Positions 104-4,733 of a DNA stretch of 5,747 bases are shown here, piece after piece. Every line of letters starts with the position of its first letter. Position 1 is the first letter of the stretch. The stretch lies in IMG/VR virus record IMGVR_UViG_2671180577_000020. One strand, given 5' to 3'. Made by a program: the position numbers and the translations under genes. This stretch comes from a virus (lineage: Duplodnaviria > Heunggongvirae > Uroviricota > Caudoviricetes). The notes beneath the pieces are model-generated. The model made no database searches, was not told the origin of the DNA, and was given only the letters and a program-made list of their open reading frames with translations.

Positions 104-598
104 ATGAACCGCGTTCTGTGTGTGGTCATCATTGCTCTGCTGGTGGCCTGTGGTGCGCTTAGTCTGGGGCTGAATCATTACCGCGATAACGCCATCACTT
201 ACAAAGCGCAGCGCGATAAAAAAGCCAGTGAACTGAAGCTGGCGAACGCAACCATTACTGATATGCAGGTGCGCCAGCGCGATGTTGCTGCGCTCGATGC
301 AAAATACTCGAGGGAATTAGCCGATGCGAGAGCTGAAAATGAAACTCTGCGTGCTGATGTTGCCGCTGGTCGTAAGCGCCTGCGGATCAACGCCACCTGC
401 TCCGGTACCGTGCGTGAAGCCACCGGCACCTCCGGCGTGGATAATGCAACCGGCCCCCGACTGGCAGACACCGCTGAACGGGATTATTTCATCCTCAGAG
501 AACGGTTGATGACAATGCAGAAGCAGCTGGAAGGGGCGCAGGAATATATCCGCACTCAGTGCACTAAGCTGGCTTTTTATTATCCGGAGGATATATGA
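104..598 (+). CDS. Rz: Rz-type i-spanin (inner-membrane spanin subunit)
   Basis: Protein from the ATG at 104 ([39 protein letters not shown]...VAALDAKY...VAAGRKRL...[11 protein letters not shown]...[12 protein letters not shown]) is near-collinear with lambda Rz as I recall it: N-terminal TM helix, then a coiled-coil periplasmic domain. The track ORF starts at 20, but homology begins at the ATG at 104, which sits just after the upstream stop with GGTGGTGA as a weak SD. Confidence 0.9.
324..509 (+). CDS. Rz1: Rz1-type o-spanin (outer-membrane lipoprotein spanin subunit), embedded in the +1 frame of Rz
   Basis: 61 aa, [61 protein letters not shown]. Signal peptide plus lipobox (LVVSAC), proline-rich mature part, and the conserved [20 protein letters not shown] block of lambda Rz1. 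GAGGGA lies 8 nt upstream of the ATG. It lies entirely inside Rz in another frame, the classic arrangement. Confidence 0.85.
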
Positions 599-819
599 AG
601 AAATTACTGGTAACCGTAAAGCCTTTTCAGGGAACAATTCTGTTCCGTATTTTGCAGCGTGGTCGTGTTCTTGTTGAAGGTTCGTTCAGTGGTAAATGTA
701 CGCAATTACACTCCCGGACCTTTCAGGTGAATGCCACGAATGAAGAGCTAACCGTTGAGTGTACGATGAATGCCGCTAAATGCCGCATGGTATCCGCTGC
801 ATTACAGCCAGTGTGTTGA
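595..819 (+). CDS. hypothetical small protein (74 aa), translationally coupled to Rz; function unknown
   Basis: Its ATG at 595-597 overlaps the Rz stop at 596-598 (ATATGA), with GGAGGA 6-11 nt upstream. Same strand as the late operon. No signal peptide or TM; three Cys in the C-terminal third. No family recognised. Confidence 0.5.
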
Positions 820-1137: not shown

Positions 1138-1151
1138 TATCTGTGCCGGGA

Positions 1152-1484
1152 ATGAAAATGAAAAGAAATCTTCCGTTAATTATTTTGTTGTCTTCTCTGG
1201 TTATGGGCTGTACGCAACATAAAACAGATATGCCCCGACAGTTGGTTAAGGCATTACCACAATATCCGGCCTATGCAGCGGCAAATTATATAAAGGGACG
1301 GGTTGATGTGAAGTTTGATATTGGTGCTGATGGTACTGTCACCCGAATTGAGTTTATCCGTTCAGAGCCGCACCATCTGTTTGATGAGCAGGTTGTAAAG
1401 GCGATGGCAAAATGGCGATTTGAGAAGGACAGGCCGCGTAAAGGCGTGAAGAAAACGTTTATCTTTAGTCCTTCTGCACCCTGA
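1152..1484 (+). CDS. lipoprotein with a TonB C-terminal domain (TonB-CTD-like, lipid-anchored); accessory (moron) gene
   Basis: MKMKRNLPLIILLSSLVMGC-TQHK is a signal peptide with lipobox (VMGC) and Thr at +2. The mature part (PQYPAYAAANYIKGRVDVKFDIGADGTVTRIEFIRSEPHHLFDEQVVKAMAKWRFEKDRP) carries the hallmark TonB C-terminal motif (P.YP..A...EG.V.V.F.V..DG.V..V.......FD..V..A...W.F). Start is ambiguous: GTG 1143, ATG 1152 or ATG 1158; 1152 chosen. Stop TGA at 1482-1484. Confidence 0.8.
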   Translation: MKMKRNLPLIILLSSLVMGCTQHKTDMPRQLVKALPQYPAYAAANYIKGRVDVKFDIGADGTVTRIEFIRSEPHHLFDEQVVKAMAKWRFEKDRPRKGVKKTFIFSPSAP

Positions 1485-1615: not shown

Positions 1616-1816
1616 TCATTTCTCGTTATTTGTCATGCTGGCCGGACGCAGATGCGTTGCATCTGTTGCCAGCCTTCTCCTGCAGGCTTCAATAACCCAC
1701 GCTGAAAAGTTACCGGACCCTTTATGCTCAAGGGCGATGTTGATCTGTTCAATCATGTGATTGGGGAAACGGATATTGCGGGTTGTGGTTCTGCGGGTCC
1801 GGTTTTTCGATGACAT
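1616..1816 (-). CDS. small ribbon-helix-helix-like protein resembling the YlcI/YnfO (DUF3950) family of lambdoid prophages; antisense to the late operon
   Basis: Minus-strand ORF of 66 aa from the ATG at 1816-1814: MSSKNRTRRTTTRNIRFPNHMIEQINIALEHKGSGNFSAWVIEACRRRLATDATHLRPASMTNNEK. Strong SD (TAAAGGAAATAAAT-ATG). The track ORF extends 20 codons upstream, but the internal ATG has the RBS and matches the family N-terminus as I remember it. The family sits just upstream of the terminase region in E. coli cryptic prophages, as here. Family recall is from memory, not a search. Confidence 0.75.
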   Translation of the reverse strand: MSSKNRTRRTTTRNIRFPNHMIEQINIALEHKGSGNFSAWVIEACRRRLATDATHLRPASMTNNEK

Positions 1817-1857
1817 ATTTATTTCCTTTACTGATTGCCATATGACGGGGATTTTAC

Positions 1858-2223
1858 ATGGCTGAGCTTCGTACACTCCAGAGCAGAATCAAAACTCTGA
1901 ACACCCGACGGGTGAATATTCTGAAGGGGGAACAGCGTCGTGTCAGTGGCAGTGCACGTGTTTCCCTCAAGCGTCATATCTGGCTCAGGGATGCCGGGCA
2001 GTGCTGTCTCTGTGGTCGTGTGGTTGACCTCTGTGACAGTGAACTCGATCACCGCATTGCACTTCAGTTCGGTGGTGGTAATGAGGAGACGAATCTCTGG
2101 ACGCTCTGTACCGAATGCCATCGCCAGAAGTCAGTCAGTGAAACGGCGAGTGGTATGCCGGACCCGACGCTGCCGGAGGTGTCCGGAGGTCATGGCAGGG
2201 CAGACGATATCATCGGACTGTGA
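1858..2223 (+). CDS. HNH endonuclease (phage packaging-associated HNH, HK97 gp74-like)
   Basis: 121 aa with the canonical HNH/zinc-finger signature: CxxC (CCLCGR) ... DHRIALQFGGGNEETNLWTLCTECHRQK (D-H ... N ... C..C-H). Sits immediately upstream of the cos-like region and the terminase genes, the conserved position for HNH packaging cofactors. Confidence 0.9.
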   Translation: MAELRTLQSRIKTLNTRRVNILKGEQRRVSGSARVSLKRHIWLRDAGQCCLCGRVVDLCDSELDHRIALQFGGGNEETNLWTLCTECHRQKSVSETASGMPDPTLPEVSGGHGRADDIIGL

Positions 2224-2511: not shown

Positions 2512-3075
2512 GTGCTGACAACGCAAAAACGAAAATTTGCGCTGGCGCTCATGTCCGGGAAAAACAAAACAGCGTCAGCCCTTGCCGCCGGTTATTCGGC
2601 GAAGACAGCCAGGGTTAAAGGCTCGCAGCTGGCAAAAGATCCGGAGGTGCTTGCGTTTATAGCCCGTAAACAGTGCGAGACGGTGGAGGTGGATGAGGTT
2701 CCTGTTTACCGGCAGAAAAAATCAGAGCCGGAGGATAAACCCCGTCGCCGTGAGGCGGCTGCAATACCACAGCCGGACGAAACAAATCCGGAGATGCCAC
2801 CGCCCGTGGTGATATCTCCTGGTATTGAGTATATGGAGGACGGTCTTCCCGATCCGGTGAAAGCGATGGGGCGTCTTCTGGTGGAGAACATTAATACCGA
2901 CCCCAGGCTGGCGCTGGATGCGGCTTATAAGCTGGCGCAGTTCACGCACCACAAAAAAGGGGATGCCGGTAAAAAATCGGCAAAAGGTGACGCGGCGAAA
3001 AAAGCGGCTAACCGTTTTGCGGTGCCACCACCACCCCGCCTGGTGGTGAATAATGATAATGAGGGCAACGGATGA
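2512..3075 (+). CDS. terminase small subunit (TerS; Terminase_2/P27-like HTH type)
   Basis: 187 aa from GTG 2512, preceded by a strong SD GGGAGGAGG (2501-2509). The N-terminus QKRKFALALMSGKNKTASALAAGYSAKTARVKGSQLAKDPEV is the typical TerS HTH region; lysine-rich basic C-terminus. Stop overlaps the TerL start (ATGA at 3072-3075). Confidence 0.85.
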   Translation: MLTTQKRKFALALMSGKNKTASALAAGYSAKTARVKGSQLAKDPEVLAFIARKQCETVEVDEVPVYRQKKSEPEDKPRRREAAAIPQPDETNPEMPPPVVISPGIEYMEDGLPDPVKAMGRLLVENINTDPRLALDAAYKLAQFTHHKKGDAGKKSAKGDAAKKAANRFAVPPPPRLVVNNDNEGNG

Positions 3076-4733
3076 TACCTGTGTGGAGCACGGCATGTCC
3101 GGACTGGGCAGAGCGCCTGAAAAAGGGGCTGTCGATTATTCCGGCTCCGATTTATCCGGACCAGGCTGCACATGCACTGGCGATTTTTAAACAACTGCGG
3201 ATTGTGGATGCACCGGGTAGCCCGACATTCGGGGAGTCCTGTGCACCGTGGGTGTTTGACCTGGTGGCGGCCCTGTTTGGCTCCTACGATGCGCAGACCG
3301 GTGTTCGCCATATCAAGGAAGTGTTTATCCTTATCCCCAAGAAAAACAGTAAGTCCACGCTGGCCGCGGGGATCATGATGACGGCGCTGTTACTGAACTG
3401 GCGGCAGGCGGCGGGCTACACCATTCTGGCCCCGACCGTGGAGGTGGCGGCTAACGCCTTCAACCCTGCCAGGGATATGGTACGACGGGACGATGATCTG
3501 GATGACCTCTGTCAGGTGCAGACACATATCCGGACCATCACCCATCGGGTGACGGACACCACCCTGAAGGTGGTGGCAGCCGATCCGAATACGGTGTCCG
3601 GTATCAAGTCCGTGGGGACACTGATTGATGAACTGTGGCTGTTTGGCAAGCAGTACAAAGCGGAAGACATGCTACGTGAAGCCATCGGCGGGCTGGCTTC
3701 ACGTCCGGAAGGGTTTGTGGTGTACACAACCACCCAGTCGAATGAACCGCCTGCCGGGGTGTTCAGGCAGAAACTGCAGTACGCCCGGGATGTCCGTGAC
3801 GGCAAAATTCATGATCCGCACTTTCTGCCGGTGATATTTGAGCATCCTCCTGAAATGGTGGAAAGCGGGGCTCACCTGCTGATGGAAAACCTCGCCATGG
3901 TTAACCCGAATCTCGGTTATTCGGTGGATGAGGCCTTTCTGTACCGGGAGTATCGTAAAGCCCGGGAAGCCGGGGAAGAGACTTTCCGCGGTTTCATGTC
4001 AAAACACGCCAATGTGGAAATCGGTCTTGCCCTGCGTTCTGACCGCTGGGCGGGCGCGGATTTCTGGGAGCAGCAGGGCAGGCGCGTCAGCCTGGACGAT
4101 ATCCTGCAGCGCGCTGATGTGGTGACGGTGGGGATTGACGGCGGGGGCCTGGATGATCTGCTGGGAATGTACGTGACTGGCCGTGACAGGGAAACCCGCG
4201 AATGGCTGGGCTGGGGCCATGCCTGGGTGCATGAAACCGCGGTGGTCAGACGGAAGAGTGAGGCATCCCGGTTTCAGGATTTTGTGGCCTGTGGAGACAT
4301 GACGATTGTCCGTCGGGTCGGGGATGACACGGCGGAAGTGGCGGAGTATGTGCGTCGTATTCATGAGGCTGAGTTACTGGATCATATCGGTATTGACCCG
4401 TCAGGTGTGGGGCAGATTCTGGATTCACTGGCGGAAGCCGGGATCCCCGATGAGAGTGTGGTGGGGATAAGCCAGGGCTGGAAGCTGGGCGGGGCCATCA
4501 AAACCACCGAGCGCAAACTGGCTGAGGGAGTGCTGGTGCATGGTGGTCAGCCACTGATGGCCTGGTGCGTTGGCAATGCCCGGGTGGAGCCTAAAGGTAA
4601 CGCCATTCTTATCACCAAACAGGCCAGCGGACGGGGAAAAATTGACCCTCTGATGGCGCTCTTCAATGCGGTGTCCCTGATGTCCCTGAATCCGGAACCG
4701 AAAAAGAAAGCGTATGAGGTTTTTTTCATATAA
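3072..4733 (+). CDS. terminase large subunit (TerL; HK97/Terminase_1 family ATPase-nuclease)
   Basis: 553 aa. Deviant Walker A typical of Terminase_1 large subunits (LIPKKNSKST; compare PRKNGKS). The length and the acidic C-terminal half are compatible with a nuclease domain (inference). ATG overlaps the TerS stop (translational coupling). Ends TAA at 4731-4733. Confidence 0.93.
   Translation: MIPVWSTACPDWAERLKKGLSIIPAPIYPDQAAHALAIFKQLRIVDAPGSPTFGESCAPWVFDLVAALFGSYDAQTGVRHIKEVFILIPKKNSKSTLAAGIMMTALLLNWRQAAGYTILAPTVEVAANAFNPARDMVRRDDDLDDLCQVQTHIRTITHRVTDTTLKVVAADPNTVSGIKSVGTLIDELWLFGKQYKAEDMLREAIGGLASRPEGFVVYTTTQSNEPPAGVFRQKLQYARDVRDGKIHDPHFLPVIFEHPPEMVESGAHLLMENLAMVNPNLGYSVDEAFLYREYRKAREAGEETFRGFMSKHANVEIGLALRSDRWAGADFWEQQGRRVSLDDILQRADVVTVGIDGGGLDDLLGMYVTGRDRETREWLGWGHAWVHETAVVRRKSEASRFQDFVACGDMTIVRRVGDDTAEVAEYVRRIHEAELLDHIGIDPSGVGQILDSLAEAGIPDESVVGISQGWKLGGAIKTTERKLAEGVLVHGGQPLMAWCVGNARVEPKGNAILITKQASGRGKIDPLMALFNAVSLMSLNPEPKKKAYEVFFI

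Follow-up and report, generated by a model that had tools for sequence, protein, structure and literature searches.

The stretch of DNA analyzed here, hereafter the window, comprises 5,747 nucleotides of the tailed-phage (Caudoviricetes) record IMGVR_UViG_2671180577_000020 in IMG/VR and, judged by its gene content in profile searches, represents the late region of a lambdoid prophage of the Shiga toxin (Stx) type. Its minus strand carries ylcI, a gene of 66 codons plus stop codon (1616..1816) that is recognized in the open reading frame (ORF) list and by Pfam, NCBIfam, PHROG and RefSeq as a member of the YlcI/YnfO (DUF3950) family, and that in our reading probably encodes a small DNA-binding repressor. 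The gene is divergent from a packaging-associated HNH endonuclease gene (1858..2223, plus strand; Pfam HNH, phrog_589), and a gap of 41 bp (1817..1857) separates the two starts. The open frame as a whole spans 1616..1876 and would give 86 amino acids if a GTG start were used; the internal ATG at 1816 gives a 66-residue protein beginning MSSKNRTRRTTTRNIRF, with the stop codon at 1618-1616. On the evidence of sequence comparison, ATG 1816 is the correct start, because RefSeq annotates a gene of identical length (201 nt) with the same start in phage JLK-2012, and because the N-terminus MS(S/T)KNR is kept in relatives despite unrelated upstream DNA. The Shine-Dalgarno sequence AAGGA (1824..1828, minus strand) lies 7 nt 5' of this ATG, and the Shine-Dalgarno stretch AGAGGAAAG is found at the same place in JLK-2012 and in the relative WGPS8. 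A reading of the sequence therefore confirms the original prediction as to the 66-residue minus-strand ORF, its good Shine-Dalgarno sequence and its distance of 41 bp from the HNH ATG. Within the gap, the 25 bp on the ylcI side vary among close relatives; the HNH side is conserved and contains the HNH ribosome-binding site. HNH genes adjoining cos and the terminase genes are a known arrangement (PMC3592412).

By profile search the window gene is a member of the YlcI/YnfO family, and it already bears that name in RefSeq. Pfam PF13132 (DUF3950) covers residues 21-50 of the protein with 71.8 bits (cut-off 25; E = 4e-20), NCBIfam NF041551 (YlcI_YnfO_N) scores 35.3 bits against a cut-off of 30, and phrog_949, a PHROG without known function, matches with E = 2.4e-33; the family name given in the original prediction is thus borne out above both curated cut-offs. 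The second predicted helix opens with an NFS(A)W motif, of which N36-F37-S38-A39-W40 is invariant in 23 close relatives and F37 also in 25 distant ones. Identity over the surrounding 900 bp reaches 95-98% in E. coli chromosomes and in Stx1a/Stx2 converting phages, and the chromosomal annotation of this stretch reads 'TonB family protein', 'YlcI/YnfO family protein' and 'HNH endonuclease' in succession. Of 5426 complete E. coli genomes, 4184 contained ylcI-like DNA when searched with the gene alone, at up to 12 copies per genome. YlcI/YnfO, a family of the E. coli 'y-ome', is represented in roughly three out of every four such genomes, and also in lambda and many Stx-converting phages. The family is narrow, comprising 185 clusters at 50% identity among 1.84 billion representatives, and many of those clusters are noisy reads of lambda control DNA. 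We found no function for it in the papers searched, and its genes are listed among the uncharacterized genes of K-12 (PMC11551758). Reported 'mutations' in the K-12 ylcI, considered as a clue to its role, carry no functional information. One diverged DUF3950 copy, on a 111-kb metagenome contig with no phage genes nearby (L200 3959-4177), seems to be an orphan chromosomal copy; it directly follows two large integral-membrane ORFs that resemble cytochrome bd oxidase subunits (a resemblance not checked by profile) and precedes a large ORF resembling a sensor/chemotaxis-type protein.

Many apparent homologues in assemblies of Streptomyces, Cohnella, Pedobacter, a Nanosynbacter metagenome-assembled genome and others are in fact lambda DNA, on contigs of either 48.4-48.5 kb or ~3.5 kb, the shorter size fitting the nanopore lambda control fragment; frameshifted lambda reads are also present in the protein cluster library. 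Because this contamination pointed there, a copy of the gene was found in lambda itself, where the complement of NC_001416 48109-48303 (3610-3804, minus strand, in our locus L046) encodes a YlcI homologue of 64 residues ~200 bp from the right cohesive end. The RefSeq record, with 100 features, has no coding sequence at 48109-48303, and several other lambda-like records annotate this ORF as 'hypothetical protein'.

Comparison of the window and lambda copies identifies a conserved core, codons 1-52 (1661..1816, minus strand), which comprises a basic N-terminal arm, a predicted strand and two helices. Between the two copies, 20 codons of the core differ synonymously and 6 non-synonymously, and an alignment of 23 relatives shows hardly any variation over residues 1-49 and no relationship among the tails. 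At the level of sequence, this shows that the core is under strong purifying selection and that the gene is real and conserved. Whether it is conserved as a coding sequence in relatives, a question raised with the original prediction, is answered in the affirmative by these counts and by the retained motif. Comparison of the variable C-terminal tail (codons 53-66 plus stop; 1616..1660, minus strand) found it unrelated among the lambda, Qin, WGPS8 and window types, with a mosaic joint near codon 50, so that the core is flanked by mosaic joints at both ends, the other lying at the ATG.

The position and orientation of ylcI are conserved as well. Its strand is opposite to that of the late genes in 59 of 60 cases among the matches listed (155 matching phage records). 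Viral contigs supplied ~72 non-identical contexts of the E. coli type, and in ~62 of them the first substantial divergent ORF upstream is a packaging gene, encoding a small terminase of the Nu1 type (379-395 bp away, across cos), an HNH protein (41-123 bp) or a gpA-type large terminase. Phage and prophage gene maps thus bear out the slot that the original prediction had given for this family, beside the terminase genes and antisense to the late operon, and show that ylcI abuts the packaging module in either of its forms, cos-Nu1 or HNH-TerS. The downstream neighbours vary: among ~75 related contexts, 35 have a DUF1398 gene of the ydfO/ybcV type on the ylcI strand, 41-42 bp away, and convergent neighbours include PerC (11), TonB_C (6), Rz (5) and others. 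In the PerC contexts (L105-L109, L124, L129 and others) a convergent ORF of 104 amino acids lies 81 bp downstream (Pfam PerC, E = 3.8e-44); this family of transcriptional activators includes virulence regulators of pathogenic E. coli. The sole expression evidence for ylcI considered here comes from RNA-seq of K-12, in which ylcI and ybcW form a convergent overlapping transcript pair in most samples (PMC12288877). The pair ynfO-ydfO is listed as a K-12 operon (PMC12218254).

The core can be read as a ribbon-helix-helix (RHH) domain. Codons 10-18 (TTTRNIRFP; 1763..1789, minus strand) would form the β-strand and DNA-reading head, as predicted from hhalign and from the variability of satellite relatives described below, and codons 19-50 (1667..1762, minus strand) would form helix A (19-32), a G-S-G-N turn (33-36) and helix B (37-50). 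The AlphaFold2 monomer has helices at residues 19-32 and 34-55, whose lengths and spacing fit an RHH with the turn G33-S34-G35-N36 between them; the mean predicted local distance difference test (pLDDT) score is 72.6, with 85-88 over residues 21-50. When this model was compared with the PDB using Foldseek, the sole match was the RHH antitoxin ParD2 (E = 8); no sequence relatives of the window protein were found in the PDB, and a structure search in BFVD was uninformative. Among 25 diverse family members, nine match a HicB-like PHROG family (best 8.3e-5) and five match Arc-like repressor PHROG families (best 6.8e-4), and the recurrent named PHROG matches are all of RHH type if the terminase families of two fusion proteins are set apart. 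One member touches Pfam RHH_6 (E = 0.092). Alignment by hhalign with the P22 Arc family, using a profile of database relatives of a typed Arc sequence that was confirmed by search, gave P = 7e-4 to 9e-4 and a probability of 23-26%, in a register that places N14-I15-R16-F17-P18 on N11-L12-R13-W14-P15 of Arc; 2 of 200 column-shuffled Arc profiles reached the same score. Each of these results from sequence profiles and models is modest and none is decisive, but all agree on an RHH, for which they make a weak-to-moderate case.

A second branch of the family (MATGxKNNKSxxKGIRFPHELIEEI...) resides on small integrative elements, here called satellites, that encode an integrase, AlpA and a zinc-ribbon/Toprim/DUF927 primase. 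In these elements the DUF3950 gene is divergent from the primase operon, and three palindromic boxes of the form GTGT-N4-6-ACAC lie ~25-110 bp upstream of it, typically near -107, -84 and -37 (L056-L087). The satellite L062, for example, has three copies of TGTGCGCACA in 9.9 kb, where 0.23 are expected, and all three are in the control region (5894-5973). Box 2 is followed by GTCAA (TTGAC on the opposite strand) and box 3 is preceded by a TA-rich, -10-like hexamer. A strict promoter scan of the satellite control region made no call, and the assignment of promoters at boxes 2 and 3, made by reading, is putative.

The satellite proteins vary in a pattern that parallels their boxes. Positions 7, 10, 13 and 15-18 do not vary among 25 distinct proteins, whereas 5, 6, 11, 12 and 14 are hypervariable. 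The similarity of the box centres, compared over 19 distinct protein/box pairs, tracks residues 5, 6 and 12, with differences of 1.25-1.43 nt for each residue singly and 2.07 nt for residues 5 and 6 jointly; the corresponding value for helix-A positions 19-26 is ~0, and the correlation with identity over the rest of the protein is r = -0.06. Boxes centred on GCGC or GCAC, for example, occur with K12 and those centred on TTTAAA with Y12; GTGTTTAAACAC is the box expected with residues of the 'Y-K-G' type, and TGTGCGCACA is that of the L062 type. Covariation at the N-terminal arm and strand favors an RHH, since a helix-turn-helix would not predict such specificity. Together with the profile and fold matches, it lends support to the earlier guess of an RHH fold and suggests, for the satellite relatives at least, that the proposal of a DNA-binding regulator was sound. 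The hydrophobic core (I15, F17, I25, F37, V41 and largely W40) is common to the phage and satellite branches, and the reading positions differ.

Some integrase-AlpA-primase elements encode DUF3950 as a fusion with the DNA-binding domain that forms the N-terminus of small terminases of the Terminase_2 type (DUF3950-TerS(N) fusions at L050 4714-5103 and L049 8001-8429; proteins P0208 and P0266-P0269). The L049 element is apparently inserted within a prophage, between terminase and tail genes.

Taking these lines of evidence together, we consider it likely that ylcI is a functional gene for a small Arc/Mnt-like RHH DNA-binding repressor, for which we infer the fold, dimerization, repression and expression in the lysogen. 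Two chains would pair their N-terminal strands (approximately residues 11-17, TTRNIRF) into a two-stranded ribbon that enters the major groove of DNA, where T12, N14, R16 and the basic N-terminal arm (K4, R6, R8 and R9) would read the bases, and helices 19-32 and 37-50 would form the core of the dimer. The gene would form a transcription unit of its own, reading leftward against the late operon and active in the prophage state, and the YlcI dimer would repress transcription. In the satellite branch, the most likely function would be autoregulation combined with control of the divergent replication operon. For the prophage, our guess at the target is the promoter of ylcI itself, transcription across the junction of the lysis/moron region with the packaging genes (HNH, terS and terL), or both; this is suggested because ylcI is fixed at the entrance of the packaging module.

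Several observations weigh against a repressor of this kind. In the AlphaFold2 monomer the basic N-terminus is unstructured and the strand is not formed. The covariation comprises only 19 pairs, and any tightly linked gene could show the same pattern. Upstream DNA of the lambda type (the cos side) and of the HNH type is unrelated right to the ATG, which implies that a shared cis operator is either absent or very short. Scans of the window and of lambda found no convincing sigma-70 promoter for ylcI. No cluster of repeat or palindrome boxes was found upstream of the window gene, the lambda upstream region contains two imperfect inverted-repeat pairs and no box cluster, and neither upstream region significantly resembles the control region of the satellites.

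Reading of the sequence gave just one plausible candidate in the window for the -10 hexamer of ylcI, TAAAAT (1851..1856, minus strand). It was not called in the consensus scan, and its conservation cannot be told apart from that of the HNH ribosome-binding site and start codon; no acceptable -35 element was found 16-18 bp upstream of it. The original prediction had placed an extended -10-like element, TGTAAAAT, at 1848-1855, which is misplaced by 3 nt and in the wrong register. On the minus strand TGTAAAAT occupies 1858..1851, overlapping the HNH start codon, and it is not a canonical TGnTATAAT extended -10 because the TG directly abuts TAAAAT (-14/-13). The single candidate from the scan farther upstream, CTGACA-17-CAGAAT (1946..1918), was rejected, its -10 being lost in WGPS8. 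In lambda, no promoter was called in the 200-bp upstream region. Two possible lambda elements were also discarded, namely the palindrome TTGATGCAGATCAA (48364-48377), which shows no enrichment in either lambda or the window, and 'AAACCACGTCAA', which resembles satellite box 2 no more than shuffled controls do.

A different cluster of repeats does lie nearby. Five exact ATGTTAAC boxes, where 0.13 are expected, occupy 2317-2437 between the HNH stop codon and terS; relatives retain the boxes, two of which make up the 20-bp palindrome CCAGTTAACATGTTAACTGG, and the boxes are specific to the HNH/Terminase_2 packaging type. By analogy with HK97, this is where small-terminase sites are expected (PMC11331095), and the boxes are probably small-terminase (cosB-like) sites. 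We assign them to the terminase rather than to YlcI because they are type-specific while the arm and strand of YlcI are the same in Nu1-type phages. Binding of YlcI to the TGTTAAC repeats, as proposed earlier, is unlikely for the same reasons of type specificity and location. These boxes bear on a second interpretation, in which YlcI is a packaging accessory factor, i.e., a small DNA-binding protein that works at or near cos with the terminase or the HNH protein in site choice, termination or end protection. Such a role would suit a gene that always abuts the packaging module at the spacings given above, a lambda copy that begins so near the right cohesive end, and the fusion of the domain to the small-terminase DNA-binding domain in some satellites. 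We nevertheless regard it as unlikely. Transcription against the late operon would mean poor expression during packaging, the packaging-deficient cryptic prophages DLP12 and Qin still carry ylcI, and stand-alone satellite members are found at a divergent promoter region with candidate operators, far from cos. Moreover, the ATGTTAAC boxes accompany one packaging type only, whereas YlcI residues 4-19 are the same with both.

The existence of the satellite branch raises the prospect of cross-talk: by analogy, YlcI might be the phage counterpart of a satellite master repressor, and by forming mixed dimers with that repressor or competing for its operators it might trigger or block satellite induction, as a signal or a brake. 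Many integrase-AlpA-primase satellites have the domain at their divergent control region, it is listed among the genes of phage-inducible chromosomal islands (PICIs) (PMC13612085), the two branches have core residues in common but different reading positions, and the phage copy has no cis operators that we could find upstream. This scenario seems improbable to us, given that no satellite was found whose boxes correspond to the phage-type head (T12, N14) and that ylcI also persists in genomes and cryptic prophages; a single-protein scan for relatives with that head gave only a chromosomal orphan copy without a control region. In a related reading, YlcI could shield cos, HNH and the terminase genes from stray transcription that originates in neighbours expressed in the lysogen. 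Either of these, if true, would give a function to a conserved lambda gene that lacks RefSeq annotation. A role as the antitoxin or regulator of a two-gene toxin-antitoxin or exclusion module, with DUF1398 as the partner, is suggested by the best structural neighbours (ParD2 and TacA1), by the HicB-like PHROG matches and by the co-directional DUF1398 gene in 35 of ~75 contexts. We think it very unlikely, because in the window nothing follows on the ylcI strand and the next gene (TonB_C, 131 bp away) is convergent, roughly half of the contexts retain ylcI by itself, and the C-terminal tail, which is the toxin-binding part of RHH antitoxins, is the least conserved region of YlcI. A 33-residue ORF (1518-1619) that overlaps the ylcI stop codon (ATGA) was considered as a toxin and rejected, as it is intact only in near-identical relatives and its differences are mostly amino-acid-changing; the lambda equivalent is an unrelated 17-residue ORF. 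PADLOC defence-system models matched neither YlcI nor its DUF1398 neighbour, the fusion protein or a satellite-type member. The suggestion that the gene is half of a toxin-antitoxin or exclusion function is thus not supported, for want of a co-directional partner in the window, a conserved 33-residue ORF or a PADLOC match. Finally, there might be no functional protein at all, the 156-bp core being a patch of homology at a mosaic boundary that is kept by lambdoid recombination, as joints exactly at the ATG and near codon 50 would allow. We give this very little credence, since it is already contradicted by the substitution pattern between types (20 synonymous versus 6 non-synonymous) and a strong Shine-Dalgarno sequence is retained although the leader has diverged. 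Because of that pattern, and because relatives at 35-57% identity retain the motif pattern, the mosaic joints do not appear sufficient to explain the conservation of the core.

The remaining features of the window place ylcI between the lysis and packaging genes. Rz (104-598) is overlapped at its stop codon by a 74-residue ORF (595-819, plus strand) that matches positions 100-172 of 291 in phrog_2571 and is probably the remnant of a longer gene. The gene convergent with ylcI (1143-1484, plus strand), 131 bp from the ylcI stop, encodes a lipoprotein with a TonB C-terminal domain (Pfam TonB_C, E = 5.8e-15; TIGR01352), and the same neighbour is seen in six related contexts. Its 113-residue product has an N-terminus resembling a lipoprotein signal with a cysteine lipobox (LVMGC). 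This gene sits between the lysis and packaging genes, and the PHROGs label 'Rz-like spanin' looks like a mis-annotation. Directly 3' of the HNH stop codon, an inverted repeat (TGATCCGCCCCGGGGGGGGATCA; 2221-2244) surrounds a run of G that has 8 residues in the window and 13 in WGPS8; the HNH gene is annotated with 176 amino acids in JLK-2012 compared with 121 here, and variation in run length may be the reason. Farther along are genes for a small terminase of the Terminase_2 type (terS, 2512-3075) and a large terminase (3072-4733), and head genes are also present. No Rfam families were found in the window.

The gene itself was already catalogued, though uncharacterized; new are the selection on its core, its count in E. 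coli genomes, the lambda copy, its constant place and orientation, its assignment as a probable RHH repressor and the candidate operators of the satellites. The RHH assignment offers testable targets in the form of those operators and the predicted specificity residues 5, 6, 12 and 14. If the target of YlcI is the packaging genes or a satellite, lambdoid late-region biology would gain an extra layer of regulation; otherwise, YlcI would be one more small prophage regulator.

The nearest known systems include the relatives in K-12 and lambda. YlcI of DLP12 (b4589), YnfO of Qin (b4533) and the lambda ORF belong to the same DUF3950 / YlcI_YnfO_N family as the window protein, are ~88% identical to it over residues 1-52, and likewise run leftward between the lysis/moron region and the packaging genes. 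Their C-terminal tails and upstream DNA, in contrast, are unrelated to those of the window gene. The K-12 and lambda copies have cos and Nu1 as neighbours at ~390 bp, whereas the window gene has the HNH gene at 41 bp, and YnfO is followed by a DUF1398 gene (ydfO) whereas the window gene has no same-strand follower. All three relatives are functionally uncharacterized (PMC11551758).

Among satellite regulators, the master regulators of the Stl type in Staphylococcus aureus pathogenicity islands (SaPIs) offer a possible parallel to the satellite DUF3950 gene, which likewise occupies a divergent control region beside a replication operon. The satellite DUF3950 fusions recall Rpp, a PICI protein that mimics the small terminase of lambda (PMC6739421), and could be analogous to this terminase mimic; Rpp, however, consists of a winged helix-turn-helix and a coiled coil rather than an RHH (PMC6739421). 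Unlike Stl and Rpp, the window gene is a phage gene.

The RHH antitoxins ParD2 (7r5a) and TacA1 (7zg6) and the DNA-binding domain of HicB are the best, albeit weak, structural or profile neighbours of YlcI. Unlike them, YlcI has no cognate toxin gene and no defence-system match, and its tail is variable rather than toxin-binding. Arc and Mnt of P22 (PF03869) offer a further comparison. They too are phage proteins of roughly 50 residues, and the strand motif N-x-R-aromatic-P aligns without gaps (NIRFP in YlcI, NLRWP in Arc). As predicted, YlcI would also have an Arc-like helix A of 14 residues, a glycine-containing turn and a helix B. The sequence relationship is marginal (P ~8e-4, probability ~25%), and the window differs from the Arc/Mnt system in having no antirepressor gene under ylcI control and no operator that we could find. 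Arc and Mnt act at palindromic operators over divergent promoters, and the satellite relatives of YlcI, with their candidate palindromic operators over putative divergent promoters, appear to share this arrangement.

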